DNA of 64,000 nucleotides. It comes from Candidatus Omnitrophota bacterium (GTDB taxonomy: Bacteria > Omnitrophota > Gorgyraeia > Gygaellales > Profunditerraquicolaceae). Of this stretch, positions 35,046 through 53,509 are shown piece by piece. A program made the position numbers and the translations under genes. The notes under the pieces were generated by a model. That model did not search any database and had not been told where the DNA came from. It saw nothing but the letters and a program-made list of their open reading frames with translations. Where the stretch lies: positions 14,955 to 78,954 of the forward strand of contig JACQXK010000038.1 in NCBI GenBank assembly GCA_016208765.1, given 5' to 3'. Every line of letters begins with the position of its first letter. The stretch's first letter is position 1.

Positions 35046-35087
35046 ATTTTTAAGTGGCAAATACTTTTTGAAACTGTTTAGGATTTA

Positions 35088-36186: not shown

Positions 36187-37074
36187 TTAGAACGCCCCCT
36201 TGGGAATTAATTCCCCCTCGGTAAATTTAATAATGATCGGCCCGGCAACCACAATCATAACCGCCGGCAAAATACAAAAAATCAAAGGAAAAAGTATTTT
36301 TAGGGATGCCTTGATTGCGTATCTTTCACCAGCCTCAAAACGCATAGTGCGCGTATCTTCAGAAAGGTTCTTAAATGTTTCCTCAATGGGAGTACCCATT
36401 CTTTCAGACTGCACTACCGAGCGCACAAAACTATTTACCTCGGGGATATTTAATCTTCTTGCCATATCCTTTAATGCCTCAGCGCGGGTTTTACCCACCT
36501 GGACCTCGCTTAACACCACGCCAAGCTGTTCAATAAAGGGATTATATTTACTTTTCTCAACCACCCATTTTATAGCCGAGAGAAAATCAGCTCCGGCGCT
36601 CACACACATATCCAAAAGGTCAATCGTCTCCGGGAAAATACGCACAATATCCTGTTTTTTCTTTTTGAATTTATTAAGCATGATCGCATCCGGCACAAAA
36701 AAACCAAAGAAAACCCCCAATAAGCCGTACAACACAGAAATAAACGTAGTGGCAATAACACCGCAAAGGATCGCTAATGCCAATTTAAAAAAAACTAATG
36801 CATACACGTTCATATCAATACGCAAAACCTCAGACTGCTGTTTTAATTTTTTAATGTACTGCAGATGAGAAAGCGGCTCAATAATAAAGTTAAGCGGCTT
36901 TAAGAAATTATCAAGCGAACCAGCCATGCTAAACGGCTTCTTCATGGCAGCTGCCATAGAATTCGGCTCGGTAATAAAATATGTGCGGCGCCTGCCCATA
37001 CCGGAAACAATGGATATAAGCAGGTAAAAAACTATAGCCAAAACCATAAAAATCACCACTAAATATATTGTCAT
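36187..37074 (-). CDS. tadC: Tad pilus inner-membrane platform protein TadC (GspF/T2SSF family)
   Basis: 295 aa, polytopic, T2SSF-like. Adjacent to tadB. Confidence 0.75.
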   Translation of the reverse strand: MTIYLVVIFMVLAIVFYLLISIVSGMGRRRTYFITEPNSMAAAMKKPFSMAGSLDNFLKPLNFIIEPLSHLQYIKKLKQQSEVLRIDMNVYALVFFKLALAILCGVIATTFISVLYGLLGVFFGFFVPDAIMLNKFKKKKQDIVRIFPETIDLLDMCVSAGADFLSAIKWVVEKSKYNPFIEQLGVVLSEVQVGKTRAEALKDMARRLNIPEVNSFVRSVVQSERMGTPIEETFKNLSEDTRTMRFEAGERYAIKASLKILFPLIFCILPAVMIVVAGPIIIKFTEGELIPKGAF

Positions 37075-37135
37075 ATCCTTCTTTCTATTGATCCTTAAGT
37101 CGGCCGAAGGCCTCCTTCAGATGACGGTAGCGCAA

Positions 37136-37993
37136 CTACATCTTAATCGTACTGATCTTTTTAATTAAGAACATTCCCACTATCTGCAGCCCAACCGCAG
37201 TCATCAAAAGTTTTTTCCCGGTTACAGTAGAAAGCATCACGTCAAAATGCTCAGGATTCTGCCGGTAAATAATGTAAGTAAAGACAAATGGCAAGAACAT
37301 CATGATTATACCCTGAAGCTTTCCCTGCAGCGTAAGGGTAGCGATTTTTTCCTTTAATTTAATATTGCTGCGGATAGTATCCACCAAGCGCGCTAAAACA
37401 TGAGGCAATTCTCCTCCTGATTCGCGAGCGATCAAAATTGAGGTTACCAGAAGATTGACTTCGTCTATCGGGACCCTCTCCCTGAGATTTTTTAAAGATT
37501 CCTCAAGGCTGACGCCGAGGCGGTTTTCTTTAAGGATCAGGTTAAATTCCTGCGAAACAGGCGCGGGCATTTCTTCGCACAATACTTCAATTGCCTGCAC
37601 AAAGCTTAATCCTGCGCGGATAGACGAGGAAAGTATGCGCAGGGTATCAATGAGTTGGCCGCGGAATTTCTTCAGTCGCTGTGCGCGGGCGATCCTTAAA
37701 ATTACCTGCGGAGCAATCAACCCTGCGACAAACCCTGCGGAAAGCACAATGGGGTTCCTGGCAATCAAAACAAAGGCAGCCCCGGCAAAAACCAAAGGCA
37801 GGAAAGAAATCAGGAAAATCTTGCGCTTCTCCCAAAAAAGAAATGATTCTTCAAGCTGGGCGGAGAATTGCTGGGTCCTGCGCTCATGCATTTTTTGGTA
37901 AAAGTCAAGCAGCATCGGGACGATGCTTTCAGATATAATATATGTGATGATAAAAACAGCGAAGAAAATAAACAGAAAAAGAAAAATTTCCAT
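37136..37993 (-). CDS. tadB: Tad pilus inner-membrane platform protein TadB (GspF/T2SSF family)
   Basis: 285 aa, T2SSF-like. Operon context with flp and tadC. Confidence 0.75.
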   Translation of the reverse strand: MEIFLFLFIFFAVFIITYIISESIVPMLLDFYQKMHERRTQQFSAQLEESFLFWEKRKIFLISFLPLVFAGAAFVLIARNPIVLSAGFVAGLIAPQVILRIARAQRLKKFRGQLIDTLRILSSSIRAGLSFVQAIEVLCEEMPAPVSQEFNLILKENRLGVSLEESLKNLRERVPIDEVNLLVTSILIARESGGELPHVLARLVDTIRSNIKLKEKIATLTLQGKLQGIIMMFLPFVFTYIIYRQNPEHFDVMLSTVTGKKLLMTAVGLQIVGMFLIKKISTIKM

Positions 37994-38002
37994 AACTATA
38001 GT

Positions 38003-38203
38003 TTATTCGTTTCCGACCTGCGAGTCAACTGTTGTTTTTTCCGGCTCATAAACTTCTCCCTGCCCGAAGGTATCGGCAGTATCGCGGATCTTTGAGGTAA
38101 GGGCGTTCTTGATATATTGCCCCATAATGATAATTGCCGCGATAATTACCGCGAAGACAACGGCAAACTCAATAATGGACTGGGCTTTATTTTTCCTGGA
38201 CAT
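38003..38203 (-). CDS. flp: Flp-family type IVb pilin (flp7), about 66 aa
   Basis: ATG at 38203 preceded by AGGTG. MSRKNKAQSIIEFAVVFAVIIAAIII carries the Flp motif (G/A)QS(I/V)(I/V)E(Y/F) plus a hydrophobic helix. The track ORF is extended N-terminally. Confidence 0.75.
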   Translation of the reverse strand: MSRKNKAQSIIEFAVVFAVIIAAIIIMGQYIKNALTSKIRDTADTFGQGEVYEPEKTTVDSQVGNE

Positions 38204-39029
38204 AAGACACCTGCACAAAAGAACCCTGGCCTTCCTGGCCATAGTTGTTATTAAACACAGAAACTTCCGCCTTACCGGAAGAAGATTTAAATTTTAATAT
38301 ATATCCTCCTTCTACCAATTGAGGAATTGTTATCCCGCTTAACGGCAGTTGCGGGGCATTCTTCATCGCAGGCAGCCTTTCTGCTTCACGATATGCTTCC
38401 TGCATATCTATAGGCTCTTCAGCTTCCCAACCCAAGGCCAGCATTTTATGCCGGTAAAAGTTCATCAAATCCTTGCTGGATTCTTTACTGGAATAAAATA
38501 TAAAGGTAAGCTGGTTGTTCTTATTGTAAAGAACCCTTATGCTTTCCGGAGGGCGGGGTATAAAATCAAGGTCCTCTCCGGCAACGTCTTCTTTGGGCAA
38601 ATACCCCTGCGCATTTTTCCAGTTGCGCAGCAATTCTTCCGGGCCGGGGGCGTTTTGCGGCTGGAGGTATTGCGCGATTACCACCTGATTTTTACCCTGC
38701 TTTGGGGTAATCACAATATTTACCACTAAATCTTCTTTTCTAAAACGCAGTAACCTGCCGATTTTTCCCGCCCTATCCTGCACAGGTTCAAATTTACTTT
38801 TCTTAAAATAATCTTCATAAAATTTATTAATGGTTTCTTCTTCAGCCTGCGACTCAAACAAGAATGACATGATTTTCATTCCCTCAAGCTGTGTTTGATG
38901 CGTATCCAACATAACACTTTGAGGAGGAACAGGAACAGACAGCTCATCCTGAGAAAAAACAGGGTCTGTAGCTGTAAATAATAAAAATAAACACACAGCT
39001 AAAAATCTAAAGACAGTTTTAATACGCAT
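38187..39029 (-). CDS. Secreted protein of unknown function (signal peptide MRIKTVFRFLAVCLFLLFTATDPVFSQ)
   Basis: ORF track entry. Lies in Tad locus context. Confidence 0.6.
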   Translation of the reverse strand: MRIKTVFRFLAVCLFLLFTATDPVFSQDELSVPVPPQSVMLDTHQTQLEGMKIMSFLFESQAEEETINKFYEDYFKKSKFEPVQDRAGKIGRLLRFRKEDLVVNIVITPKQGKNQVVIAQYLQPQNAPGPEELLRNWKNAQGYLPKEDVAGEDLDFIPRPPESIRVLYNKNNQLTFIFYSSKESSKDLMNFYRHKMLALGWEAEEPIDMQEAYREAERLPAMKNAPQLPLSGITIPQLVEGGYILKFKSSSGKAEVSVFNNNYGQEGQGSFVQVSYVQEK

Positions 39030-40293
39030 GTGTCAATTTAGTCTCAAACAGGTGGCGCTCCGTATCAAAGAAGCTCCAGTCACTGCCCTTGCAGCCGAAA
39101 ATATTAGTGATCAACTGCCCGGGATTGAACTGCGGCCTGATTGTTTCTTCATCATCTAAATCCGTATGCTCCCTGAAGGCAACGCCAACCCCCGAAGCTG
39201 AAACTTCTCCGTACCTTAATTTCCAAACTCCCAGGTCTTTTGGCTTTTTGTAACGAGTAACCTTGACCACCAGCGGATTATCATCTGTCTGCGCTTTGGT
39301 GCGGTCTTTTAACTCCAGCCCGGCAAAGTCTATACCGGTAGGCATAAACTCTGTCATACCCTTTACAATTGCCTTAGTAGTCTCAATAATAAATCCAAAC
39401 CCAAGCCATTCTAAATACCAGGGAATACTTAAATTTCCTGTTATGAAATTTAAAAGGCAATTCAAGATTTCTGCTATCCAACTATAGAAATTAATCGCAT
39501 AAGTACCGGCGCCTGTAACCTGCACTTCTATCCAATTTTCATAATTCTTATAACTGTCTCCATTACTATAACTATTTCCTCCTCCTGATGACTTATCATT
39601 CCATCCATAACCGGAATTAACCTCAGCCTCGCTATAATCACCCGGCTCTACCTTGCCAAAGCTATCGCGCCAATAACCATTATGTATATCTTGCATAAAA
39701 TTAGAAAACCCGCTTCTGGCATACCTGACTGCGCTTCCTGTTTCACCTTTCATATATTCATCATAATATATGCGCAATTGATCGTTAGTCAACTTTTCAG
39801 GCGTTGTTTTGTACGCGTTGGATAAAAAGCTTTCAAAAGTAGGCTGAGGCTCTTCAACACTAATATTATTAAATGCGTATTGAACTGCGGTTTTCTTGGC
39901 ATTAGTCCAGCCCATATTTGAATCACCCATCGCATGTAACAATTCAATGAACATGTTAATAAAAAACGCTACGGCCAATATAATTACTATTACCCATCCT
40001 AAAACAGGTATGCATGCGGAAATAATTATTGGGATAATTACCTCTGTTGCCCTACCGGACATCATGTCGCTTTTTAAGCCAAGCCCAAGGAGCGTACTGC
40101 TTAACACGCTCGCGCCTGAAAGCGCACCCGCATCAGCGGCATTTGATACCTCAGTCTTAAATATGCCTAACTGCCCCAGATTAAGCGTGATCATTGCCAT
40201 TACCAAAAACACCGCGATGACGGCCACAAGAAAAGGAAACACCTGCCCCTTTTCATAATGGTTTTTATTCTGGGAGAATTCCTTAAATATCAT
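39019..40293 (-). CDS. tadG: TadG-like Tad pilus assembly / minor pilin protein
   Basis: N-terminus ...GQVFPFLVAVIAVFLVMAMITLNLGQLGIFKTEVSNAADAGALSGASVL resembles the TadE/G N-terminal helix plus the NAADAAALAGA motif. Confidence 0.55.
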   Translation of the reverse strand: MIFKEFSQNKNHYEKGQVFPFLVAVIAVFLVMAMITLNLGQLGIFKTEVSNAADAGALSGASVLSSTLLGLGLKSDMMSGRATEVIIPIIISACIPVLGWVIVIILAVAFFINMFIELLHAMGDSNMGWTNAKKTAVQYAFNNISVEEPQPTFESFLSNAYKTTPEKLTNDQLRIYYDEYMKGETGSAVRYARSGFSNFMQDIHNGYWRDSFGKVEPGDYSEAEVNSGYGWNDKSSGGGNSYSNGDSYKNYENWIEVQVTGAGTYAINFYSWIAEILNCLLNFITGNLSIPWYLEWLGFGFIIETTKAIVKGMTEFMPTGIDFAGLELKDRTKAQTDDNPLVVKVTRYKKPKDLGVWKLRYGEVSASGVGVAFREHTDLDDEETIRPQFNPGQLITNIFGCKGSDWSFFDTERHLFETKLTHAY

Positions 40294-40329: not shown

Positions 40330-42084
40330 TTATTGAGCAATAGGAGTTAAAGCCTGAATACACGCTGCGCGCTCAGCCTGTGTCGGCTTCAGGCAACATT
40401 TTCTATATTCTTCTTTTTGGTTAACAACTTTCTTGCCGGCCTCTTCAATTATATTTGCGCTTCTATACGACAAAAGGTATCCTAACATATAGTCTGCACC
40501 GACGAAAAATGGGTCTCCGGGGGGACAGGGTTGATACAGCCATTGCCAATCGCACCATTGATGGCATTGTGCTTCTGAATTAAATATGGGAGATGCGCCA
40601 AGAGCGGCGAAACACCACCGAAAACCAAACCAAGGATCTTCTATCCAGATTTTGCACCATTGATACCTGCCCCCGCCAACTTCTTTACAATTTTGTTTCG
40701 GATGATTTGCCCTCCACGGGATTGCGCATTGCGCTTCGGTAAAATTCTCATCTTGCCTGCCATCATTACAAAAGTCACAGGCCATGCCGCTGTTTTCTGC
40801 TGCGCAATTCAGGCATTTAGCCCTGTTTCCCGCGGCGAGCGCCCCGCATCTTTGACAGGAAACAATGTAAGCATTACAAGCTGCTGCATTACATCCGGCT
40901 TCAAATCCGGAAAAACAAGTTTTACAAGATACGGGGCTATTTGCACAAGTTTTACAATCATTATTCAACTGAACCTTGTTACAGTTTAAATCACTGCCGC
41001 AGTAAGTTGAAATCGCCCCGTCAAACGCAGCTGAAGATTGGGCGCCGCAAACACATTGGCCAAAGCACCCGCAATTAACGTTAAAAGTATTAACAGTTAA
41101 ACCGCATCCTTCTTTGCCCAAACAAGATTGTTTACAATCTTCACCGGGCTCAAAAGGAGTAATGCTATAAATCCTTTTATTTATGGAATCCTCGCATGCC
41201 TGTCGCAGCCCCTGATCAACAATGTGTGAGCACATACATTGGGCCTGTTCTTCAACCGACCGATAGCTGCTGCAACGGCACTCAAGCTGCTTCTGCGGGT
41301 TATCCTCTTTCACATTACAAAAACATCTTTGCTGATCCGCAAAAGTTGCCTGGCTGCAACAACCGACCATGCCGTCTCTTTTCTGTTTAAGTTTGGCGCC
41401 TTCAGTTTCAAACTTAGAGGCCAGATCCCAAAGCTTGTGTGCTGCCTTTTTCAATTCACTGGCGGTTTTACCCCAATTACCCCACCAACAGATTTCCCAC
41501 GGGTCATCGCATTGGCTTGCCTTATCCCACATACTATTGGCGTTTCGCCAAAAATTACAGGCCATCCCGTCTCCGCAGCGATTTCCCCCGATTTTTCCGC
41601 AATCCTCATTCTGCCCGCAATATTGTTTCACCTGATTAGTCAGGGCATTTACCATCGGCTGAACCCTTGACAGACAGATACAACGGGTATAACAAGGACA
41701 CTCCTTATTAAATTTTCCATCTTTATCAAAACAGGCTTGATCATTATTACATTGCTCAAGGCACTCTGAGGGGCTGAACCCGCCGCCCTCAAATAAACCT
41801 TTACTCCAGGCATCAACCTGTTGCCCGGGTTCTCCCTTAAAGACCCACTCCTCGGTTAATTCCAAAGGCCTAAAAGGCACAACACTAACAAGATCTGTTT
41901 TTTGTTCCTGAACGGCAGGTGTCCCTGCCTGAAGGCGGGTTTTTTGATAGATGACATCGCGCGCGGCATAATTGGCATTAAACCAAACCATGACCCTCGC
42001 TATGCCGATTACCAAAATAAGAATGCCGACAAAAGTAAAAACAAAATCCAGTATTGACTGGGATTTCTTTTTATTCATTGGCAT
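40330..42084 (-). CDS. Cysteine-rich (about 75 Cys) pseudopilin-like protein with a Flp/TadE-type N-terminus; candidate pilus tip adhesin
   Basis: N-terminus MPMNKKKSQSILDFVFTFVGILILVIGIARVMVW (pilin-like KSQSILDF + TM), followed by about 520 aa with dense C-x-x-C / C-x(3-6)-C spacing. Confidence 0.6.
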   Translation of the reverse strand: MPMNKKKSQSILDFVFTFVGILILVIGIARVMVWFNANYAARDVIYQKTRLQAGTPAVQEQKTDLVSVVPFRPLELTEEWVFKGEPGQQVDAWSKGLFEGGGFSPSECLEQCNNDQACFDKDGKFNKECPCYTRCICLSRVQPMVNALTNQVKQYCGQNEDCGKIGGNRCGDGMACNFWRNANSMWDKASQCDDPWEICWWGNWGKTASELKKAAHKLWDLASKFETEGAKLKQKRDGMVGCCSQATFADQQRCFCNVKEDNPQKQLECRCSSYRSVEEQAQCMCSHIVDQGLRQACEDSINKRIYSITPFEPGEDCKQSCLGKEGCGLTVNTFNVNCGCFGQCVCGAQSSAAFDGAISTYCGSDLNCNKVQLNNDCKTCANSPVSCKTCFSGFEAGCNAAACNAYIVSCQRCGALAAGNRAKCLNCAAENSGMACDFCNDGRQDENFTEAQCAIPWRANHPKQNCKEVGGGRYQWCKIWIEDPWFGFRWCFAALGASPIFNSEAQCHQWCDWQWLYQPCPPGDPFFVGADYMLGYLLSYRSANIIEEAGKKVVNQKEEYRKCCLKPTQAERAACIQALTPIAQ

Positions 42085-42110
42085 GAAAACATTATGAACA
42101 TGAAGTTGTT

Positions 42111-42176
42111 GTCATGCCCGCGGACGCGGGCATCCAGACGTTCCAATGGCTGGATTCCCGCATTCGCGGGAATGAC
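42111..42176. repeat. Palindromic intergenic repeat copy D (between the tadE-like gene and the Cys-rich pseudopilin gene)
   Basis: gtcatgcccgcggacgcgggcatccagacgttccaatggctggattcccgcattcgcgggaatgac. Confidence 0.85.
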
Positions 42177-42183
42177 GGTTAAG

Positions 42184-43008
42184 TTATTCCAAAGATGTTT
42201 CCCAAGTCTTCTGCCTGACAATTTTATTATCTACTTTGTCTTTGCTGTATTCCGCGGTAGTGCGGACCAAACGCCCGGTATCCGGGTCTCTCTCTTCTTT
42301 GCTGGATACGCCAAAACTATAAGCTGCAGGCTGAGCATTATATTCATACTCAGGAAGCTTTCCTTGCTCCCATGGTTGCTTATCATCCCACGGCTCTTCA
42401 TCTACAGCCTTATCAAAACGGGTATAAATCTTAGTTTCAATATTACTTGTCAGCTCGGATTTTTTACTGGTTCTAATCCCGTTACCAGCAGGAAGATTTT
42501 CCTCCCGCTTGGCATACGAATCATATTTCTCAACAACGCGTCTTTCTTCCTTCCAAATACTCTCCGGAGCTGTAATCTCGCGTTTGCTGCCGTCAAATCC
42601 TACAACTTCTTTCTTCTTACGGGCAAGGCCGGTATCAGCATTACCGAGCGGCTGGCCGTTGATTTCATAAAACGCGTAGGAAGCATCATTGTCAACACCC
42701 TGCGGCCCCGGCATTCCCTTTTGCCACATCAGGCTTGCTGATGCTCCTATTGTTGAAGGCTGCCCCTGGCCAAAACCACCTAAAAGATTAAAAAAACGTG
42801 CGTCCTTTTTTATTGTATATGAAACCGTGCCGTTTTTTTCGTAGGCTTTTTGCATTGCTATGCGAAAGGCGTCCATTTTAAGCTTCTGCTGCATTTCAAG
42901 CCTCTGGCCGAAACTTAATAAAAGCGAAGCGCCTAACAGCATCATGCTGCTAAGCACCGCTAATTCCACTACTGACTGTGCCTTCGCATTGCGAGAATAT
43001 ATTTTCAT
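42184..43008 (-). CDS. tadE: TadE-like pseudopilin
   Basis: MKIYSRNAKAQSVVELAVLSSMMLLGASLLLSF has the prepilin-like motif plus a hydrophobic helix. Confidence 0.6.
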   Translation of the reverse strand: MKIYSRNAKAQSVVELAVLSSMMLLGASLLLSFGQRLEMQQKLKMDAFRIAMQKAYEKNGTVSYTIKKDARFFNLLGGFGQGQPSTIGASASLMWQKGMPGPQGVDNDASYAFYEINGQPLGNADTGLARKKKEVVGFDGSKREITAPESIWKEERRVVEKYDSYAKREENLPAGNGIRTSKKSELTSNIETKIYTRFDKAVDEEPWDDKQPWEQGKLPEYEYNAQPAAYSFGVSSKEERDPDTGRLVRTTAEYSKDKVDNKIVRQKTWETSLE

Positions 43009-43050: not shown

Positions 43051-43551
43051 TTACCCTCCTAATTTGTCATTAACATCGCTGCTTAAATTATTGCGCAGAG
43101 CGTCTACCTCATCCCCAAGATCTTTCTTCGCAGGAAGAGCGTGATTATCTACAGAATATGCTCTGAGCGCTGAACGAAAATCTTCTCCAACAGCAACGCT
43201 CAGGCTATGCTCAGTGTTTCCGACTGAGGAAGAAAAGCTGATATTCCGAGGAGAAGATGTCTCGGTTAATTGCGTATCCTGCTTATTCTGGCTCACAGAT
43301 TTAGTTACCACAGAATCATCGCCTTTATACTGCTGAGTGTCCTGCCCCCACCTGCCCCAGAAACAATAATCCGCGCTTGCTGCGACTTTTGCGCGCAGAG
43401 AGCGGGAAACTATCTTCTGGGTAAAAAGCCAACCCATTGACAATACCGCCAAAACCGCTACCCACATACTAAGGCTTTGGCCGCAACGGCTGTTAAATAA
43501 CTTATTTTTCGTCAGCAAAGGCATCCACCCCCTCTGTCTTACTAAAAGCAT
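43051..43551 (-). CDS. Minor pilin-like protein (weak prepilin motif RCGQSLSMWVAVLAVL); start uncertain (43551 or 43524)
   Basis: ORF track entry. Overlaps the 3' end of flp6 in another frame. Confidence 0.4.
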   Translation of the reverse strand: MLLVRQRGWMPLLTKNKLFNSRCGQSLSMWVAVLAVLSMGWLFTQKIVSRSLRAKVAASADYCFWGRWGQDTQQYKGDDSVVTKSVSQNKQDTQLTETSSPRNISFSSSVGNTEHSLSVAVGEDFRSALRAYSVDNHALPAKKDLGDEVDALRNNLSSDVNDKLGG

Positions 43552-43834
43552 TGGTGGTTTGGCTCTGAGTTACAGTCATCCCAAGAGGAATATTATCGCT
43601 CTCAACACCGGTCCTGGAATCAGAATAGGTAGAGGTTTTTGTAATTGTGGTAGAGGCAGTATGCCCGGGGGAATATTGCATCCCGACTTCATCTACCTCT
43701 CTTTTGATCCTGCCCTCATAACACCTCTTTACATAAAACTGCATGATCATCAGTGCGCTGAGGATCAGGCAGAACAATACCGTATATTCTACAATGCTCT
43801 GCCCGATCTTAGACTTTTTCAATGCGCGAAACAT
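43502..43834 (-). CDS. flp: Flp-family pilin with C-terminal extension (flp6, 110 aa)
   Basis: MFRALKKSKIGQSIVEYTVLFCLILSALMI. RBS TCAGGAGGC. Confidence 0.8.
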   Translation of the reverse strand: MFRALKKSKIGQSIVEYTVLFCLILSALMIMQFYVKRCYEGRIKREVDEVGMQYSPGHTASTTITKTSTYSDSRTGVESDNIPLGMTVTQSQTTNAFSKTEGVDAFADEK

Positions 43835-43860
43835 AACTCAGCCTCCTGATAAAAACGATA

Positions 43861-44298
43861 TTACTTGGCGTATTCGCCCGATAAATCTTCTGCGTTTTCC
43901 GCAGTATATTCAGACCAACGAGTCTTTTCCTGGTTAGCTGAATCAGTTGAAGACTTCGTAGCCATTGTCATTTCTCCGCCTGTCCTCTGATTAACAGAAT
44001 AAGTATCCTTCTCCAAAGTATTGACTGACGCATCTATTCCTTCGGGAAGAAAATCTCCGATCGCACCAGTTGTAGCAGAAGCATCAACTATTTCCTGAGG
44101 GCTATTCATTGTCCTTTTATTAAGGACAGTGGTCCCTCCTGCAGAAAACTGCTCGCCCATTTTATCCGCAGATTCCTTAAGGTTACCCTGGAACCCTCTT
44201 TTTACAAACACCTGCATGATCAAAACTGCAGCCACGACCACACCCAACAAAACTGCATATTCAAGTATTGACTGACCTCTATTACGTTTATTAAACAT
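43861..44298 (-). CDS. flp: Flp-family pilin with C-terminal extension (flp5, about 145 aa)
   Basis: MFNKRNRGQSILEYAVLLGVVVAAVLIM. GGGAGGTG lies upstream of the ATG at 44298. Confidence 0.8.
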   Translation of the reverse strand: MFNKRNRGQSILEYAVLLGVVVAAVLIMQVFVKRGFQGNLKESADKMGEQFSAGGTTVLNKRTMNSPQEIVDASATTGAIGDFLPEGIDASVNTLEKDTYSVNQRTGGEMTMATKSSTDSANQEKTRWSEYTAENAEDLSGEYAK

Positions 44299-44326
44299 CT
44301 TACCAATCACCTCCCTTTAAATAAAG

Positions 44327-44704
44327 TTATTCTGCCGCATCCAGAGTTTCAATGCTGACTGCGCTGGTTGTAGTAGTCTGGCTCTGTTCACGATCTTCCT
44401 TGCCGCCTTTATGCAGAATGCTCTTGTCTACAAAAGTCTTATCATCAACGGTTGTTTTACGCAAATCCTGGGTATACAAAGATTGATCGCTACCTGAAGT
44501 GCTGTAGCTGGACAAATCAAAATCTGAATCGTTCGCCTTATCTTCTTTTCCCCCGGCTTGCTGCAAGAAATTCAATGACTGCGTGCTCTTATCGCGTATG
44601 CCGCCTTTTAAGGCCACAGACAAAAATCCTGCCGCAACTGCCACCACCAATCCTAATGTAATCGCGTATTCTGCTGTTGATTGCGCTCTTTTACTTAAAA
44701 ACAT
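44327..44704 (-). CDS. flp: Flp-family pilin (flp4, 125 aa)
   Basis: MFLSKRAQSTAEYAITLGLVVAVAAGFL. RBS GAGGAGGTGAGC. Confidence 0.8.
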   Translation of the reverse strand: MFLSKRAQSTAEYAITLGLVVAVAAGFLSVALKGGIRDKSTQSLNFLQQAGGKEDKANDSDFDLSSYSTSGSDQSLYTQDLRKTTVDDKTFVDKSILHKGGKEDREQSQTTTTSAVSIETLDAAE

Positions 44705-44727
44705 TTTTGCTCACCTCCTCTTAAATT

Positions 44728-44916
44728 TTATTCTTTAAATATACCTGTTGTTAAATCATTGGTCGTGTTTTGAATGGCATCTCCCGCCTTATCATATGCG
44801 CCCTTTATTTTCGTTTTAACTCCTCCGAACAACGCCACAACAATTACAGTGATCACCGCGCCCAATAACAGAGTGTATTCCAAGATGCTCTGGCCTTTCT
44901 TAAAATCACGTCTCAT
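44728..44916 (-). CDS. flp: Flp-family pilin (flp3, about 62 aa)
   Basis: ATG at 44916 preceded by GAAGGAGGTGA. MRRDFKKGQSILEYTLLLGAVITVIVVALF. Confidence 0.8.
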   Translation of the reverse strand: MRRDFKKGQSILEYTLLLGAVITVIVVALFGGVKTKIKGAYDKAGDAIQNTTNDLTTGIFKE

Positions 44917-44975
44917 TTTCTCACCTCCTTCACAATAAGTGAACACTTGCCTATCCAATAAGGCAAGGTGCCTTT

Positions 44976-45119
44976 TTATTTTAATTCGTCCTGAATCTGT
45001 TTAATTCTTGCGTTCATTGAACGATATACATAACGCTGCGTAATTAACAGTGCCCCGGCCACTACGGTAAACAATAAAACAAACTCAATAATACTTTGTG
45101 CTCTTTTATTCCTAATCAA
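44976..45119 (-). CDS. flp: Flp-family pilin missing from the ORF track (flp2, 47 aa, TTG start)
   Basis: Hand translation: (M)IRNKRAQSIIEFVLLFTVVAGALLITQRYVYRSMNARIKQIQDELK*. GGGGGTG lies 5 nt upstream of the TTG. An upstream in-frame TAG rules out a longer ORF. Confidence 0.6.
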   Translation of the reverse strand: MIRNKRAQSIIEFVLLFTVVAGALLITQRYVYRSMNARIKQIQDELK

Positions 45120-45291
45120 CTTGCACCCCCATAAATGCTGCTATGGTCTGAAAATGATTCTCAAACACATTATTCTTTGTTTTTAGAAGAAAATCAGTGC
45201 TTACTAAGGCAATCACAGCTACTGCTGCCAAAAGCAGATATTCTACGAAAGATTGTCCAATCTGGTTTCTTAAAGACTTTTTAAATTTCAT
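45112..45291 (-). CDS. flp: Flp-family pilin (flp1, about 59 aa), first gene of the pilin array, under promoter/leader L3
   Basis: ATG at 45291 preceded by AAGGAG. MKFKKSLRNQIGQSFVEYLLLAAVAVIALV. The track ORF 45112..45444 reads through the leader. Confidence 0.75.
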   Translation of the reverse strand: MKFKKSLRNQIGQSFVEYLLLAAVAVIALVSTDFLLKTKNNVFENHFQTIAAFMGVQVD

Positions 45292-47797: not shown

Positions 47798-47823
47798 ATC
47801 CTTCGCTCGTTCAGGATGACGTC
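47798..47823. repeat. S-element copy 3 (reverse orientation) spanning the tadZ-tadA stop codon
   Basis: gatccttcgctcgttcaggatgacgtc. Confidence 0.6.
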
Positions 47824-49967
47824 TTAAAGACATCATCGGACAAAGCAATGCCTTTAATTTTAAGCTCTTGCACAAATGGAGGGATGTAACCGGTAGCCGT
47901 AAAATTTCCTAAAACCTTGCCCTGATTGTCAACGCCGGTCTGACGAAAATTAAAAACGTCTTTTAAGCCGATATGTACTTCGTCTTTCATGCCGCTCAAC
48001 TCTGATATTTGTATTATTTTACGCGTCCCGTCGCTAAGGCGGGCAGTGTGCACAATAATATGCAATGCAGAAGCAATCATCTCACGAATAGCCCTGATCG
48101 GAAGCTCTACTCCTGACATAAGGATCATAGAATCAAGCCTGACTAAAACATCCTGCGTAGAATTAGCATGCACAGTCGTCATAGAGCCGTCGTGGCCTGT
48201 GTTCATTGCCTGAAGCATGTCCAGGGTTTCTGCGCCGCGGCACTCTCCTATAACAATTCTATCGGGGCGCATACGCAGAGTGTTACGAAAGAGTTCACGG
48301 ATAGAAATCATCCCTTTCCCTTCAATGTTAGGCGGACGCGACTCTAACCTGATCCAATGCTCCTGGCTTAATTTAAGTTCAGCCGCATCTTCAATAGTAA
48401 CAATTCGCTCGGTATTTGGGATAAAAGCTGAGAGGATATTTAAAACCGTAGTCTTACCCGAACCCGTCCCACCGGAAACAATAACATTCTTTCTGGCGAC
48501 AACACACGCCCTGATAAAATCTGCCATTGCCTTACTAACAGAGTTCATGGCGATTAATTCTTCTATCTTAAATTTTTCTTTTCTAAATTTACGGATCGTC
48601 AGCGTCGGCCCGGTAAGCGCCAAAGGCGGGATAATCGCGTTTACGCGCGAGCCGTCGGCAAGGCGGCTATCCACCATCGGCACAGATTCATCAATGCGCC
48701 GGCCGGTAGGAGCAATGATACGCTCAATAATCGTTTTTACCTGATCATTAGAAATAAACTTTTTGCTGGTCAGCTCTATTTTTCCATGACGCTCAATATA
48801 CACTTCATCTTTGTTATTAACCATGATGTCGGTAATGCCGGGGTCTGCCAAAAGGTCTTCTAAAGGGCCCAACCCAAGCGCCTCATCAACTATTTCCTTG
48901 ATAAATTTGTTGCGCACCTCCATAGAAGAAATAAAACTGCCGGCCTCATCGGTGAGTAAGTTAGAAACAATTACTTCTGCTTTCTTCCTAAGCTCATGTT
49001 TTTTCACCGCGTCGCTAAAGATCTTGACGTCTAGCCTTTTAATATTCATTTCATCAATCAGGCGGTTATGGATCCGGCGTTTGATCAAAAGCACCTGATC
49101 GGTTTCTGCTGCCACCTCTTCCTCTTGCCCGGCAACGCTAACACCGAATTCTTTCCAAAATGCCGCAGGCTTCTCCAACTGCTCCTTACCTGCCTCAAGA
49201 GCCCCGATCTCTCTGTGAGAAGTATATAATCTTTCTTCAACGATAAGTTTGTGCGCGAATTTCTTGATTGCCTGAGAGATGCCGGATTTAGGCACATCTA
49301 CCACTACCGGAACGCGGCGGTTAATAGAAAGCCCGACGATTTTACCCTCTGAGGGCAGTGCCGCAATAATCTCGCTGGACAAATTAACCTGCAACTCTTC
49401 AAGGCTGATACTTGAAACAGATTCTGAACGGTTAATCACCACCTTGATCATCGTCAAAGGAAAATGCATTGACTGCAAAGTATCCACAACCCACTTCGTC
49501 TGGTATACAGATAAAATATCCGGAGTTACCAAAAGAAGGATCAAGTTTGACTGATTAATTGAACGCATAAATATTTCATTAAAACTCTTACCGGCATCAA
49601 TTACAACATAATCATAATCGCTGGCATATAATTTAAAAATTGTATCAATGCACTCAGGAGGCAAAATCGCGGCCTGTTGCGGTTTTAAAACCGCAGGAAG
49701 GAAATCAAAACCAAAAGCAGTATGCGTAATAAATGCCTGCTTTTCCGCATCAGCCTTTTGTCTTTTAATGGCTCCGGAGATATCAATCATTGATTTTTGC
49801 GGGCCAAGATTAAGCATCCTTGACAGATCCCCTACACCCTGCAAATCAAAATCCATTAACAAGACGCGTTTTTTCTCGTCGCGGGAAAGGCTCGCGGCAA
49901 GATTAGAGGCGACAAAGGTTTTACCCACTCCACCTTTTGTGCTGAATATTGATATTACCTTAGACAT
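47811..49967 (-). CDS. tadA: Fused TadZ/CpaE-like (MinD/ParA-type) N-terminal domain + TadA/CpaF secretion ATPase
   Basis: N-terminus MSKVISIFSTKGGVGKTFVASNLA (deviant Walker A). C-terminal part VSGGTGSGKTT...DRIVIGECRG...TGHDGSMTTVHANS (VirB11/CpaF Walker A, Walker B, His box). Confidence 0.8.
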   Translation of the reverse strand: MSKVISIFSTKGGVGKTFVASNLAASLSRDEKKRVLLMDFDLQGVGDLSRMLNLGPQKSMIDISGAIKRQKADAEKQAFITHTAFGFDFLPAVLKPQQAAILPPECIDTIFKLYASDYDYVVIDAGKSFNEIFMRSINQSNLILLLVTPDILSVYQTKWVVDTLQSMHFPLTMIKVVINRSESVSSISLEELQVNLSSEIIAALPSEGKIVGLSINRRVPVVVDVPKSGISQAIKKFAHKLIVEERLYTSHREIGALEAGKEQLEKPAAFWKEFGVSVAGQEEEVAAETDQVLLIKRRIHNRLIDEMNIKRLDVKIFSDAVKKHELRKKAEVIVSNLLTDEAGSFISSMEVRNKFIKEIVDEALGLGPLEDLLADPGITDIMVNNKDEVYIERHGKIELTSKKFISNDQVKTIIERIIAPTGRRIDESVPMVDSRLADGSRVNAIIPPLALTGPTLTIRKFRKEKFKIEELIAMNSVSKAMADFIRACVVARKNVIVSGGTGSGKTTVLNILSAFIPNTERIVTIEDAAELKLSQEHWIRLESRPPNIEGKGMISIRELFRNTLRMRPDRIVIGECRGAETLDMLQAMNTGHDGSMTTVHANSTQDVLVRLDSMILMSGVELPIRAIREMIASALHIIVHTARLSDGTRKIIQISELSGMKDEVHIGLKDVFNFRQTGVDNQGKVLGNFTATGYIPPFVQELKIKGIALSDDVFKTSS

Positions 49968-49970
49968 AAT

Positions 49971-51647
49971 TTACTCTAACTGATAGGAAATCGGGATATC
50001 CACCCATAATTCTTTAGTGCCGATTGTCGTAGGAAACGGAGGATACTGAGAAATCTGTTTTGCAACTTTTAAAGCGTTATCGTCAAGTATTTTATAGTTT
50101 GAGGAATTCTTAACCACGGCATCCAGCAAATCACCTTTGTAAGAAATAAGCAGGCTCAGTTGCACTGTCCCTTCAAACCCGGATTGCTTTGCTTGGGCAG
50201 GATAGGCTAAATTCTTCATAATCTTTTGTTTGATTATGCCTGTGTATTTTGCAACAGGGTCTAACGCATACTCGTCTGCAACTTCAACTGTAGAAGCAGC
50301 TTTTTTTGCCTGCTCCATGCTAATATCCATTTGTTTTGCATCTGGGGTTAACGGTTGTTGAGGTTTTTCGGCATCTGCAGGCTGCTCCTCGGTTTTCTTT
50401 TCCAAATAAGGAGTTTCCCTGCTGACAATCGTCGGGGTAATGATAATATATAATTCGGTATCTGCTTTCTGCCCTGTGCCGCCGCCGGTCTTGGTTACTC
50501 TTTTTCTAAAAGCTCCCCCAACCAAAGGAAGGTCCCCGAACCAGGGAACCTTGGTTACCTGTTCCTCGGTTTTCCTGCGCATCAGGCCGCCGATGGATAA
50601 TGTCTGCCCGTTCAACAGGAATAGCTCTGTTGAGGCATTGCGCTTGGTTAATGGGAATGCCTTTGCAGTAATGTTGGTCGCTGTGCCAAGAGTTTCCGCC
50701 TCGCCGTAATCGCTAACCTCCATTTTCACTCCCAACTTAATACGGTCATCGGGCATTACTGTTGGTTTCATCTTAAGCTTAATCCCAAATTCTTTATACT
50801 CAACTTCTGTGCCGGAAGAACCTGCTGTCGCCGCCACAGAAGTAGTGAGCACGGGCTTTTCTCCTCCGACGAGCAATTCAGCTTCTTTGCCGCTTTGACA
50901 GGCAAGCCGCGGACGGGAAAGAATCTTTGCCTTACCCTCCTCTATTAAAGCATCCAGCTTTAAGGTAAATGCGCTGTCTCGCTTAACATTTAAAAGCCTG
51001 AATACATTAGAAAATGCCGTACCACCAGCAGCCAAACCCGGAGAGCCTACTTCAGTAAGACTGACAGAACTCGGCCAGGTAACTCCGAGAGTTTTGCTTG
51101 CATCCTGATCAAGTTCTAAAACCTGCACATCAATTTCTACCACAGATTCTTCTTCGCGGACAGTAGTCAAATTTATTGTTTTTGCCATTAAAGGGCCGAG
51201 CGCCAAAGAAATTTTTTTAATGTCATCGTCGCTTTTTACCCTGCCTAAAAGCATTACCTTGCCTTCCTCATCAGAATCCTTTGTATATACCTCGGGAAGA
51301 TCTAAAGTTTCGAGCATGCTGTCTATTCTACGTTTAATATCCTTCATATCTTCTGTATAGACCCTTATTTCCTGTGACTTTTCTCCGGAAGCATCCCAAT
51401 AAAAAAGAGTAGTTGTGCCTCGGCCTTTGGCAGCAACAATGATAGTATCTTTGCTGACCTCTACCACATCAATTACCTGAGGGTTAGAAATTACTATTCT
51501 CGTCGGGTTAGAAGCAGAAATAGGCCGCGTGTCTCCGACATACATAACAAATTCCTCGCCTGATTTATCCGCAGCGCCCAAAACGCCAAAACAACATAAA
51601 ATTGCAAACCCCGACACAATAAAACTCTGCAAGATTCTTTTTGTCAT
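49971..51647 (-). CDS. cpaC: Tad secretin (RcpA/CpaC family) with C-terminal TonB-C-like domain
   Basis: Secretin core ...TLSIGGLMRRKTEEQVTKVPWFGDLPLVGGAFR...ELYIIITPTIV. C-terminus YPAQAKQSGFEGTVQLSLLISYKGDLLDAVVKNSS...LDDNALKVAKQISQYPPFP matches the TonB_C pattern. Confidence 0.75.
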   Translation of the reverse strand: MTKRILQSFIVSGFAILCCFGVLGAADKSGEEFVMYVGDTRPISASNPTRIVISNPQVIDVVEVSKDTIIVAAKGRGTTTLFYWDASGEKSQEIRVYTEDMKDIKRRIDSMLETLDLPEVYTKDSDEEGKVMLLGRVKSDDDIKKISLALGPLMAKTINLTTVREEESVVEIDVQVLELDQDASKTLGVTWPSSVSLTEVGSPGLAAGGTAFSNVFRLLNVKRDSAFTLKLDALIEEGKAKILSRPRLACQSGKEAELLVGGEKPVLTTSVAATAGSSGTEVEYKEFGIKLKMKPTVMPDDRIKLGVKMEVSDYGEAETLGTATNITAKAFPLTKRNASTELFLLNGQTLSIGGLMRRKTEEQVTKVPWFGDLPLVGGAFRKRVTKTGGGTGQKADTELYIIITPTIVSRETPYLEKKTEEQPADAEKPQQPLTPDAKQMDISMEQAKKAASTVEVADEYALDPVAKYTGIIKQKIMKNLAYPAQAKQSGFEGTVQLSLLISYKGDLLDAVVKNSSNYKILDDNALKVAKQISQYPPFPTTIGTKELWVDIPISYQLE

Positions 51648-51657
51648 TATTTTTCCT

Positions 51658-52611
51658 CTATTTATTGGATAAAGGCATTCTTTCTTTGTTTAAGCCCCGA
51701 TAAATCTCTACGAAACCTTTTTCTTCCCGCGGCTTTTCAGCTTCCACGTTAGAAGGAGTTATATAATTTAACAAGGTATCCCAATCAGCCGGCTTGGTTT
51801 TGTCAATCTGGGTATCTCCCGGAGAGCGCAGCACCAGCCTGATTTTTCCTTGTTCGTTAACAAACGATATTAAGTTCGCCTCTTCCGGAGAAAGCGCCAA
51901 TGTAATTAAAGGTGAAATGTCTTTCTTTTTGTCGCTGCCTTTGGATTTAAAAATCATTCCTGCTTGCGGAGATAAAATTTCATCTCCAACTGCCAGCACT
52001 AAAACGTTTTGAAATAAAGGCACAGTGCTTTTATCTTTTTGCTTTTCATTATCTTTTACGCCCATTGGCCCGCTGTTAGGCAGGGCAATAATAGCAATCA
52101 AATCCACAAAATCACCCGGCTTAATCATTCCTGCCAAAGAAGAGATATTGTCTACCGAAATCGTGATCGCCCTTTTCCCTGCGGGAGTAACTTCGGCTAA
52201 TCCGCTTTCTTTTTGGGTATATTTTTGCTTTCCGCCACCTTCTATCTGCGTGACCTTATTTGCAGTGATCTGTTCCCCTTTTAAAATATCTTCAATAACA
52301 CCCATTCCCGCTACTGCATCCATAGCTGTTGCCGCATTAGGACGGACATATTTTTCAGGGATTACTTGCGCAACAACCATAGAAGGATCTATAACTGTGC
52401 CGCGCGGAAGATCCTTATTTGCCACCAACACTGCCACCATAGAAGATTGTAAACGCTTAAATTCTTCTTTAGCGTTCTCTGTAACTTTTTTCTTTTCAGT
52501 CTCTATTAGATACTTGACCGTAAAGACAGTAACCACTGCCAAGACGATACTGATCAACACCATCGGGATTTTTTTCTGCATATTCTGCATATTATTTAAT
52601 TTCTCCCTCAA
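51658..52611 (-). CDS. cpaB: Flp pilus assembly protein CpaB/RcpC
   Basis: N-terminal TM followed by ...DLPRGTVIDPSMV... (SAF/CpaB). Operon position. Confidence 0.65.
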   Translation of the reverse strand: MREKLNNMQNMQKKIPMVLISIVLAVVTVFTVKYLIETEKKKVTENAKEEFKRLQSSMVAVLVANKDLPRGTVIDPSMVVAQVIPEKYVRPNAATAMDAVAGMGVIEDILKGEQITANKVTQIEGGGKQKYTQKESGLAEVTPAGKRAITISVDNISSLAGMIKPGDFVDLIAIIALPNSGPMGVKDNEKQKDKSTVPLFQNVLVLAVGDEILSPQAGMIFKSKGSDKKKDISPLITLALSPEEANLISFVNEQGKIRLVLRSPGDTQIDKTKPADWDTLLNYITPSNVEAEKPREEKGFVEIYRGLNKERMPLSNK

Positions 52612-53509
52612 TAATTTCTATTTTTGCTCCGCGGTTTAGCTGATCAATCATATTTTCCATTTTCTGCTGCTGCTTTAAAAATACGAGCGCGCGCTTAATA
52701 TCATCCCACATTTCAGACAATGTCTTTTGCTTACCCCCACGCTTACCTTCTAATTTAACAATATAATAACCGTCGGGGCCTTTAAATATGCTGCTGACCT
52801 TGCCGACTTCCAGCGAATCGGAGAAAGCCACTGTATCAAACTGTTCCGACTTTTTACCTCTCTGCAAATATCCAAGGTCGCCTCCGGATGCCGCGCTCTT
52901 TGCCCTTGAGCGATCTTTTGCAATAGTGGCAAAATCTGCTCCCTGCAAAAGCTGGATCATAATATCTTTTGCATCCTGCTCGCTGGGAACCATAATCTCC
53001 CTGATCTGCCGCTCTTCGGGTTCCTTCAGCTTATCTTTATACAAGTTATAATATTCTTCAATTTCTCCTGAAGTAACATCCACATTTTCGGTTTCTTTAC
53101 GCACAAGCTCTAAGACAAGCAGATTCTGTTTTGTTTTTTCAAGCGCCAAAAGAATGTCTTCTTTTTTATCAAGCCCTTGCTTTAATGCCTCCTGATATAA
53201 AAGTATCTGGCGGACCTTGTCATTTTTCAAATACTCAATTTTTTTATCACGGGTGGTGATTTTTAATTCCGGCTTATCTGCCGGGACGGAAGCATTGTAG
53301 GCCTCTATATCCTGATTCAGATCTTCAAGTGTAACCGCTGTGCCGTTAACCTTAGCTACTATCGGCCCCTTTCCCACAAAAGCCGTAGAAACAGAAGCAG
53401 ATTTTTTCGCCGGGCTCTTTTTTTGCTGCAACATCGGGAGCTTATCGCAACCTATTATTACCATGATAGCACAAAATAAAACTAAAAGGATCCTTCTGTT
53501 CATCTTCAT
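52592..53509 (-). CDS. PpiC-type peptidyl-prolyl isomerase lipoprotein (SurA/PrsA-like)
   Basis: Lipobox VIIGC. Parvulin motif ...QGADFATIAKDRSRAKSAASGGDLGYLQRGK...SSIFKGPDGYYIVKLEG. Confidence 0.65.
   Translation of the reverse strand: MKMNRRILLVLFCAIMVIIGCDKLPMLQQKKSPAKKSASVSTAFVGKGPIVAKVNGTAVTLEDLNQDIEAYNASVPADKPELKITTRDKKIEYLKNDKVRQILLYQEALKQGLDKKEDILLALEKTKQNLLVLELVRKETENVDVTSGEIEEYYNLYKDKLKEPEERQIREIMVPSEQDAKDIMIQLLQGADFATIAKDRSRAKSAASGGDLGYLQRGKKSEQFDTVAFSDSLEVGKVSSIFKGPDGYYIVKLEGKRGGKQKTLSEMWDDIKRALVFLKQQQKMENMIDQLNRGAKIEIIEGEIK

Follow-up and report, generated by a model that had tools for sequence, protein, structure and literature searches.

A cysteine-rich pilin-like protein as a candidate tip subunit of an Omnitrophota Tad pilus

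The protein of 584 residues encoded here begins with a pilin-type signal and helix, and on balance we think that it is probably a minor pilin-like subunit, specific to this lineage, of the Tad (type IVc) pilus of Omnitrophota. The best reading is a minor pilin with a swappable head at the pilus tip. The case for this role is mostly computational, and we infer both the tip location and the adhesive function from the order of the genes, the extent to which the distal half has diverged, and analogy with KilL, KilM and KilN of Myxococcus (PMC12075869).

Results

Gene and locus

The open reading frame lies on the minus strand with the position and length given in the preliminary description. NCBI annotates it from the second methionine, as the 582-residue 'hypothetical protein HY761_06755' of a Candidatus Omnitrophica MAG. 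Its translation contains 53 cysteines, not the roughly 75 first claimed, and cysteine makes up 9.1% of all residues and 10.9% of residues 101–584 rather than about 13%. The repeated CxxC and CxC patterns are indeed there (five and seven, respectively), and every cysteine is located after residue 107, hence beyond the membrane helix. Histidine is rare (4 of 584 residues, 0.7%). A local phmmer search found no paralogue elsewhere in the window (the whole 64-kb stretch of DNA analysed), the self match of the distal half scoring 662 bits.

That this gene belongs to a Tad pilus locus is supported by Tad genes identified with Pfam and by a gene order conserved across Omnitrophota genomes: Flp pilins, a ~160-residue gene, a ~275-residue gene, the cysteine-rich gene, a TadG-like gene, TadB and TadC. 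The same order was seen in related loci L001, L002, L003, L005–L013, L018 and L019. Where genes had been called (L001, L003 and L019), a gene similar in size to the ~160-residue gene occupies its position. Giant open reading frames, of at least 8943, 2512 and 3260 residues, flank the Tad locus on both sides.

A palindromic repeat had been placed just before the gene, at 42111–42176; a REP-like repeat does occur just upstream, at 42106–42176 (Table 1). It is present in four copies in the window. The RNA hairpin of the copy upstream of the gene has a folding energy of −42.8 kcal/mol (z = −4.8), and L005, the closest related genome, retains the repeat at this site with 2 differences over 66 nt. 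At the head of the pilin genes, the c-di-GMP-I riboswitch aptamer RF01051 scores 40.2 bits against a gathering score of 35. The same aptamer is found upstream of the first Flp gene in L002, L005 and L011, and c-di-GMP-I riboswitches also accompany both downstream giant genes.

Table 1. Features of the cysteine-rich protein, its gene and the surrounding Tad locus
Feature	Position	Strand	Basis or remark
CDS, 584-residue cysteine-rich pilin-like protein	40330..42084	minus	ORF list and translation
Leader MPMNKKKS, residues 1–8	42061..42084	minus	Basic; ends in small Ser8, the predicted prepilin-peptidase site
Residues 9–54: Q+1, D+5, F+6, hydrophobic stretch of ~20 residues, then GIxRIWxWFNANYAxRQxxYQxSRLxAG (conserved in the family)	41923..42060	minus	AlphaFold2 and family alignment
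Residues 55–100, low-confidence connector with P-L-x-L-T-E-E-W-V-F-x-G at 73–84 (nearly invariant in the family)	41785..41922	minus	Alignment and AlphaFold
Domain A, residues 101–305, conserved, all-α with one Trp-rich β hairpin	41170..41784	minus	Alignment and model
Distal half, residues 306–584, diverged tandem copy of domain A	40333..41169	minus	Sequence comparison, tblastn and model
Insert with five CxxC, residues 377–439	40768..40956	minus	Aligns only among the query, P0002 and P0003, the last two being its closest homologues
REP-like palindromic repeat	42106..42176	none	In the 100-nt gap between the 274-residue gene and the cysteine-rich gene
274-residue pilin-like protein (NAKAQSVVEL...)	42184..43008	minus	Keeps its place upstream in the related loci that were examined
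166-residue protein, degenerate pilin-like N-terminus (CGQSLSMW...)	43051..43551	minus	Similar-sized genes in L001, L003 and L019
Group of six Flp-like pilin genes of small or medium size	43502..45291	minus	Each with a G/A-QS-x-x-E-Y/F motif
The six genes individually	43502–43834, 43861–44310, 44327–44704, 44728–44958, 44976–45119, 45112–~45291	minus
c-di-GMP-I riboswitch aptamer RF01051	45349..45475	minus	Just upstream of the first Flp gene
Sigma-70-like promoter	45496–45524		Best in the region; precedes the aptamer
424-residue TadG-like protein	39019..40293	minus	PF13400 'Tad', E 2.2e-5; conserved downstream neighbour
280-residue exported protein	38187–39029	minus	Downstream, same cluster (whole block 36187..39029)
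65-residue Flp-like pilin	38003–38242	minus	Downstream, same cluster
TadB	37136–37993	minus	Downstream, same cluster
TadC	36187–37074	minus	Downstream, same cluster
ParA/TadZ-TadA fusion ATPase	47811–49967	minus	Upstream Tad machinery (block 47811..53509)
Secretin with TonB_C domain	49971–51647	minus	Upstream Tad machinery
RcpC/CpaB	51658–52611	minus	Upstream Tad machinery
PPIase	52592–53509	minus	Upstream Tad machinery

N-terminal signal

The translation contains the N-terminal string KSQSILDFVFTFVGILILVIGIA, and its original reading as a pilin-type N-terminus held up in a motif count, in the family alignment and in a profile comparison with Flp pilins. When the six-frame translation of the whole window was searched for the class III motif [KRN]x0-2[GAS]Q[SAV]x[ILVFA][DE][FYL], nine matches were found, while 0.1 were expected from shuffles. 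Each of the nine opens an ORF on the minus strand, all of them fall between 38.1 and 45.3 kb, and the motif is thereby common to the cysteine-rich protein and eight other pilin ORFs within a 7-kb stretch. In the family alignment (n = 86), the residue at −1 is small in 83 members (A 34, S 30, G 19), position +5 is D in 58, E in 8 and G in 18, position +1 is Q, and +6 is F or Y. The protein itself has Ser at −1, D13 and F14 at +5 and +6, and a hydropathy of 2.7 over residues 11–29. Its Ser at −1 and Asp at +5 depart from the classical Gly and Glu.

Within the family, conservation is highest around the predicted cleavage site, where the residues agree with those of Flp pilins. An hhalign comparison between the family and the Flp pilins of the same loci gave a probability of 95.7% (E 8.6e-9), and AlphaFold2 predicts residues 8–54 to form a single unbroken helix of 47 residues with a pLDDT of ~90. 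Judged by these sequence comparisons, the N-terminus is a true class III signal followed by a hydrophobic α1 helix homologous to that of Flp pilins. The profile homology to the Flp pilins of this locus covers the leader, the cleavage motif and the start of the α1 helix; those pilins are 47–150 residues long with 0–2 cysteines, whereas the present protein adds ~530 residues of cysteine-rich ectodomain. A Pfam search of the window and of the related ~20-kb loci returned no Peptidase_A24 or prepilin peptidase gene.

Ectodomain

In the AlphaFold2 models, no β-sheet pilin head packs on α1-C after the α1 helix. A disordered connector is followed instead by an all-α domain, and the only predicted strands in the protein are hairpins at residues 198–207 and 467–475. 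The preliminary description named as its refutation a predicted cytoplasmic metal-binding protein lacking a pilin-like N-terminal helix; the long helix is present, but the canonical pilin head after it is missing. Because no β-sheet head is predicted after α1, the modelled protein is not a canonical pilin fold.

Domain A, with its Trp-rich hairpin (CDDPWEICWWGNWGK), has conserved core cysteines at positions 108, 112, 118, 129, 131, 135, 137, 192, 199, 242, 243, 254 and 283, and the all-α AlphaFold model of residues 98–310 has a pLDDT of 91.8 and a pTM of 0.80. The relation of the distal half to domain A can be seen in an internal repeat, in which residues 311–374 resemble 101–166 and residues 541–580 resemble 222–254. 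Model confidence is low in the distal half (pLDDT <50 over most of 310–530). In place of the disulfide-knotted distal domain earlier pictured, the AlphaFold models of the protein give a helical bundle and not small knotted repeats.

A search for EGF/TB-like or metal-binding repeats had been suggested; Pfam and NCBIfam match no known cysteine-repeat domain. No family scored above threshold in Pfam and NCBIfam for this protein or in Pfam for 90 family members, and the cysteine-poor and very long members are likewise without a Pfam domain. DUF3285, DUF6381 and WXG100 came up as candidates and were set aside as weak helical or transmembrane look-alikes. A sequence-profile search of the PDB returned only weak coiled-coil matches (E of at least 0.02); we found no specific PDB relative of the helical domain and no homology of the protein to any binding domain.

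Cysteines

The number of cysteines beyond the membrane helix is even in 59 of 71 family members and odd in 12 (p = 7e-9), and many of the counts are 2 modulo 4. C112 and C131 co-vary across the family (phi 0.81). Essentially all 53 cysteines are kept in two homologues, although non-cysteine identity in the C-terminal half is 50–65%. The protein and these two closest homologues have an odd count. The odd cysteine may pair with the TadG-like neighbour, whose three cysteines are also odd in number, but this idea is unsupported: at 8 of 12 loci the two counts share the same parity (not significant).

The haem-binding motif CxxCH is found nowhere in the protein and in one of 113 family proteins, and the insert at 377–439 has neither CxxCH nor histidine partners. 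A cytochrome or metal-site reading was rejected (0 CxxCH, 4 His in 584 residues). Given the even counts, the absence of CxxCH and the rarity of histidine, disulfides are more likely than metal sites. Cysteines of the ectodomain are gained and lost in pairs. The description of the protein as disulfide-rich is thus supported indirectly, by the even-number rule, by the outward-facing topology and by the absence of haem or histidine-type metal motifs.

Family distribution and the variable head

The family has 108 representatives, and every named genome among them is an omnitrophotan. No Pfam or NCBIfam model exists for it, and by these searches it appears to be an undescribed family found, among named genomes, only in Omnitrophota. 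Its members range from 239 to 1059 residues. When residues 306–584 were compared by tblastn with 10 loci, seven gave no match, L001 and L002 gave short partial matches (11–22% of the query), and only the closest locus, L005, matched over the full length. Every other protein of the locus aligns essentially full length, at 26–66%, in the loci that carry it. In L019, a 453-residue head with 2 cysteines occupies the same slot. By these comparisons, no other segment of the locus diverges as fast as the distal half, and a cysteine-poor head can take its place.

Discussion

How does this protein compare with known Tad subunits? Its closest parallel is in Myxococcus xanthus, where KilL, KilM and KilN, homologues of TadE, TadF and TadG, are the 'Tip' minor pilins of a Tad pilus (Herrou et al., 2025, PMC12075869), and the variable, disulfide-rich distal domains of the Tip complexes set prey range (PMC12075869). 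Like the Kil proteins, the present protein is a large pilin-like product of the Tad locus of a putative predator, with an N-terminal α1-N helix bearing a predicted prepilin-peptidase site, a C-terminal domain that is variable and of unknown fold, numerous predicted intramolecular disulfides, and different heads on its relatives (paralogues or orthologues). The likeness is one of architecture and published description. The Kil proteins also retain a β-stranded pilin head, with a large β scaffold in KilN, whereas our protein is predicted to be almost wholly helical, and Myxococcus has four paralogous tip clusters per genome, while here a single slot varies from one genome to another.

TadE and TadF (PF07811) fall well short of 584 residues in length. 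Their genes too lie between the Flp genes and tadG, and the proteins have a leader with a small −1 residue and then a hydrophobic helix; in Aggregatibacter, TadV processes them (Tomich 2006, as cited in PMC12075869). PF07811 had no match in our protein (E ≤ 0.1) or in any of 90 family members (E ≤ 0.01). TadG/CpaL, modelled at the tip of the Caulobacter Tad pilus (PMC12607857, PMC13533445), shares with our protein its rank as the largest minor pilin-like protein of the locus, a proposed tip position and a modular C-terminal domain. However, PF13400 matches the adjacent 424-residue protein in this locus, and the vWA domain of Caulobacter CpaL was not found in ours, which points to an additional, lineage-specific subunit. 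The early judgement that the protein is unlike TadE, TadF and TadG in sequence therefore stands, as no family member matches the TadE or Tad Pfam models and the next gene does match PF13400.

Other explanations have to be weighed against a Tad tip subunit. The protein could be an uncleaved bitopic inner-membrane protein, N-terminus inside, whose single transmembrane helix anchors a periplasmic cysteine-rich helical domain and which serves outside the filament as a static part of the Tad assembly, such as a scaffold or ruler. We consider this unlikely. A static machine part would be expected to be constant in length and sequence, but no protein of the locus is more variable than this one, with an unalignable distal half and a cysteine-poor head in L019; and a plain anchor would not need the Flp-like conservation around the putative cleavage site. 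Very improbable, in our view, is a metal-binding or redox protein whose CxxC and CxC motifs bind Zn, Fe or Fe-S centres or serve as sites of thiol-disulfide oxidoreductase activity. Five CxxC within 63 residues, seven CxC and an odd cysteine count kept in the two closest homologues would suit such a protein, but the even counts elsewhere in the family, often 2 modulo 4, point to pairs and not tetrads, the CxxC-rich insert is aligned in three sequences only, CxxCH is absent and histidine rare, no Pfam match to metal-binding, zinc-ribbon, DnaJ-CR or thioredoxin families was obtained, and the N-terminal signal puts the domain outside the cytoplasm.

A different role at a tip is also conceivable: the protein may cap, as a structural tip, the short pseudopilus of a T2SS-like machine that exports or presents the neighbouring giant proteins, without itself being a host-binding adhesin. 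GspK, the largest minor pseudopilin of the T2SS, bears a helical insertion and would be the model for such a cap. The flanking giant ORFs and the c-di-GMP-I riboswitches common to the pilin operon and both downstream giant genes fit this possibility, as do surveys that find this 'secretion system' beside Omnitrophota giant genes (bioRxiv 10.1101/2023.11.21.568195; 10.64898/2026.06.07.730766). We nevertheless regard it as quite unlikely, as RcpC, TadZ-TadA, TadB/TadC and multiple Flp pilins mark the machinery as Tad-type, the strong divergence of the distal half is more in keeping with an external ligand than with a conserved cargo, and no similarity to GspK was found by sequence or fold.

If the protein is a Tad tip subunit, prepilin peptidase would cut it after Ser8, and the mature helix (residues 9–54) would pack with the helices of the 166-, 274- and 424-residue neighbours in an initiation or tip complex that primes Flp polymerisation. 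The conserved connector motif and the Trp-rich hairpin would hold it to these partner subunits, and the disulfide-stapled helical stalk (101–305) would project the variable module (306–584) outward, where it may bind some structure on the surface of its host or prey. Disulfides would keep the protein folded under the tension of pilus retraction, and c-di-GMP may set expression of the operon through the riboswitch. Possible as well, though we lean against the full claim, is that the family represents a novel structural class among the type IV pilin-like proteins, which retains only the cleavable α1 helix and replaces the β-sheet head with a disulfide-stapled all-α stalk, and whose exchangeable recognition module at the tip, co-regulated with the flanking giant proteins via c-di-GMP riboswitches, sets the host range of ultra-small epibionts through its distal half.

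Omnitrophota are widespread, uncultured and ultra-small bacteria thought to be predators or parasites, and the Tad locus with its flanking giant genes is the main genomic evidence for such a lifestyle (PMC10066038; bioRxiv 10.1101/2023.11.21.568195). Because its conserved anchoring helix bears a disulfide-braced stalk and a very fast-evolving outer end, this protein is the best candidate for the host- or prey-recognising part of the Omnitrophota adhesion pilus. Of the components of a locus that is otherwise conserved, it alone differs strongly from genome to genome, and is therefore a concrete candidate for the specificity determinant. It might serve as bait in the search for hosts, as a marker of host-range evolution, or as a target for antibodies that label pilus tips. 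If this reading is true, the idea of an adaptable Tad tip would extend from Myxococcus to a distant phylum, in an all-helical, disulfide-stapled architecture.

The cysteine-rich gene and its Tad locus

The gene for the 584-aa cysteine-rich pilin-like protein (hereafter the target) is a genuine ORF, and NCBI holds an identical product from a Candidatus Omnitrophica MAG, a 'hypothetical protein' of 582 aa annotated from the second methionine. What the preliminary description had observed was partly confirmed: the ORF, the N-terminal string that it cited and an upstream palindrome are all present, but the cysteines had been overestimated (about 75, or 13%, vs. the 53 counted, which make up 9.1% of the protein and 10.9% of residues 101–584). 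CxC occurs seven times and CxxC five times.

The target lies in a Tad pilus cluster in which the genes run in the order PPIase, RcpC/CpaB, secretin fused to a TonB_C domain, ParA/TadZ-TadA fusion ATPase, DUF192 protein, a conserved 604-aa protein, six Flp-like pilins, two pilin-like proteins of 166 and 274 aa, the target, a TadG-like protein (424 aa, PF13400), an exported protein of 280 aa, one further small Flp, TadB, TadC and a PsbP-like lipoprotein. This gene order, with a target-family member in the same slot, was found in all related loci examined. The secretin and ATPase fusions are unusual and recur in two of these loci (L002 and L003). At the position of the 604-aa protein, which has no Pfam match and may be a regulator, similar-sized genes are found in L002, L003, L005, L008 and L019 (in L019 with a faint Pfam HTH_32 match). 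Giant ORFs flank the locus on both sides, with a tRNA gene between one of them and the PPIase gene. A Tad locus of this type beside Omnitrophota giant genes has already been described; a text search for cysteine found no mention of the target component in PMC10066038, bioRxiv 10.1101/2023.11.21.568195 or 10.64898/2026.06.07.730766.

Features of the window and of related Tad loci (L numbers) from other Omnitrophota genomes
Sequence	Positions	Strand	Feature	Remarks
Window	1-26829	-	Giant ORF	at least 8943 aa; runs off window start
Window	26915-27056	-	c-di-GMP-I riboswitch (RF01051)	ahead of a giant ORF downstream of Tad locus
Window	27209-27279		REP-like palindrome	intergenic
Window	27347-27417		REP-like palindrome	intergenic
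Window	27546-35060	-	Giant ORF	2504 aa
Window	35121-35276	-	c-di-GMP-I riboswitch (RF01051)	ahead of a giant ORF downstream of Tad locus
Window	35439-35509		REP-like palindrome	intergenic
Window	about 53.5 to 35.6 kb	-	Tad pilus cluster
Window	39019-40293	-	TadG-like protein	adjacent to target
Window	40330-42084	-	Target
Window	41488-41532	-	CDDPWEICWWGNWGK	residues 185-199 onward
Window	42106-42176		REP-like palindrome	intergenic; upstream of target
Window	45349-45475	-	c-di-GMP-I riboswitch (RF01051)	between best promoter-like site and first Flp gene
Window	45496-45524		Best promoter-like site
Window	45556-47370	-	604-aa protein	between ATPase/DUF192 genes and pilin operon
Window	47811-49967	-	ParA/TadZ-like + TadA ATPases	one 718-aa protein
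Window	49971-51647	-	Secretin	C-terminal TonB_C domain
Window	54008-54082	-	tRNA gene
Window	54216-63905	-	Giant ORF	3229 aa
L002	5179-5314		RF01051	pilin-operon arrangement
L005	4600-4729		RF01051	pilin-operon arrangement
L005	~7912-7980		REP hairpin	same site as in window
L008	15287-15373		RF01051
L011	3841-3936		RF01051	pilin-operon arrangement
L019	6575-7936		453-aa protein	target slot

A pilin-type N-terminus

When 1.84 billion representatives were searched exhaustively with phmmer, a family of 108 proteins emerged, 239 to 1059 aa long. Its common part corresponds to target residues 3–260, and no Pfam or NCBIfam model covers it. All 14 family loci in GTDB species genomes belong to Omnitrophota MAGs, some bearing the placeholder title 'uncultured Planctomycetales'.

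Judged by sequence and model, the target has a pilin-type N-terminus with a predicted cleavage site. A six-frame translation of the whole window contains nine instances of the class III-type motif [KRN]x0-2[GAS]Q[SAV]x[ILVFA][DE][FYL] with a hydrophobic stretch after it (0.1 in shuffled sequence); every one opens a minus-strand ORF within the interval 38.1–45.3 kb. In a survey of 90 family members, 83 of 86 carry A, S or G at position -1, 80 carry Gln at +1, and 66 carry Asp/Glu and 18 Gly at +5, while +6 is Phe or Tyr without exception; the nearly invariant GIxRIWxWFNANYAxRQxxYQxSRLxAG follows. In the target itself, -1 is Ser and +5 is Asp. In a profile-profile comparison, the N-terminal segment matched 63 Flp-like pilins of the same loci with 95.7% probability (E 8.6e-9). 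In line with the pilin-type N-terminus noted in the preliminary description, the AlphaFold2 model has a single N-terminal helix spanning residues 8–54 (pLDDT about 90). No prepilin peptidase gene was found in the window or the related loci.

Ectodomain and cysteines

Beyond the helix, the full-length AlphaFold2 model has a low-confidence connector (residues 55–100), which contains the nearly invariant motif PLxLTEEWVFxG, then a confident helical domain; residues 310–530 are poorly modelled. Modelled separately, residues 98–310 (pLDDT 91.8, pTM 0.80) form long helical hairpins and a single Trp-rich beta hairpin, CDDPWEICWWGNWGK, the best-conserved motif of the ectodomain. This hairpin is probably closed by a disulfide and may serve to contact a partner protein or to bind a glycan.

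All cysteines of the target are distal to the membrane helix. Among family members with at least 12 cysteines beyond that helix, the number is even in 59 of 71 (p = 7e-9), and many family counts equal 2 mod 4, as would be expected of disulfide pairs but not of tetrahedral metal sites. Across the family, gain or loss of C112 goes with that of C131. There is no CxxCH in the target, and His makes up only 0.7%. The target shares all 53 cysteines with its two nearest relatives, at a background identity of 50–65%. Their number is odd in each of the three proteins. Three cysteines, again an odd number, are present in the neighbouring TadG-like protein, and an intermolecular disulfide with the target is conceivable; parity agrees in only 8 of 12 loci.

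A conserved stalk and an exchangeable head

The distal half (residues 306–584) seems to be a second copy of domain A (residues 101–305) that lies in tandem with the first and has diverged from it, since residues 311–374 echo the cysteine pattern and sequence of 101–166 (BLAST E 1e-8; phmmer E down to 3e-10 against domain A of other members) and residues 541–580 weakly resemble the CC-helix of 222–254 (best domain E 0.013, in family member P0017). Within this half, an insert with five CxxC could be aligned for three proteins only, the target and its two nearest homologues.

Each locus protein was compared with ten orthologous loci. All others aligned essentially over their full length, at 26–66% identity in the distant loci carrying them. 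Residues 306–584 had a full-length match in L005, the closest related locus, only; they were unmatched in seven loci, and L001 and L002 gave short partial matches (11–22% of the query). In L019, otherwise identical in layout, the slot is filled by a protein of 453 aa that shares the N-terminal module, has only two cysteines and matches no Pfam model, so the head domain is exchangeable. Together with the range of family lengths, these comparisons show that the anchor and stalk are conserved and that the head is swappable and evolves fast.

Riboswitches and a repeat hairpin

Three c-di-GMP-I riboswitch aptamers score above the Rfam gathering threshold in the window, and the pilin-operon arrangement is repeated in three related loci. 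The papers on Omnitrophota giant genes refer to PilZ and GGDEF domains, not to riboswitches. A REP-like palindrome of 66–71 nt has four copies, two of which sit at operon boundaries with a riboswitch close downstream. The copy ahead of the target forms a hairpin (-42.8 kcal/mol, z = -4.8) and recurs in L005 with two changes in 66 nt, much better kept than the flanking coding sequence (proteins about 72–75% identical); in more distant loci there is no space for it. The hairpin may tune the ratio of upstream to downstream pilin transcripts. The element weakly matches Wolbachia sRNA 46, below threshold.

Interpretation

The best-supported reading is that the target is an Omnitrophota-specific Tad minor pilin-like subunit. 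Through its helix it would enter a tip or initiation complex that also contains the three larger pilin-like proteins encoded nearby, and its ectodomain, braced by disulfides, would expose a variable recognition module. Tip location and adhesion are inferred; the interpretation in the preliminary description is partly supported overall. The main alternative, an uncleaved component of an inner-membrane machine, is hard to square with the target's extreme variability and with the conserved cleavage motif.

Such a minor pilin would be a variation on known Tad minor/tip pilins. TadG/CpaL has been placed at the tip of the Caulobacter Tad pilus. The most similar known case comes from the Kil pilus of Myxococcus, where TadE/F/G-like minor pilins form interchangeable tips whose variable, disulfide-rich distal domains determine which prey is killed (PMC12075869). 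The target differs from these substantially: it has an all-alpha fold with no beta head and, as the preliminary description held, is unlike TadE/F/G, both the TadE and Tad Pfam signatures being absent; a canonical TadG-like gene also adjoins it. The finding is of moderate interest because the target is a concrete candidate for host recognition by Omnitrophota.
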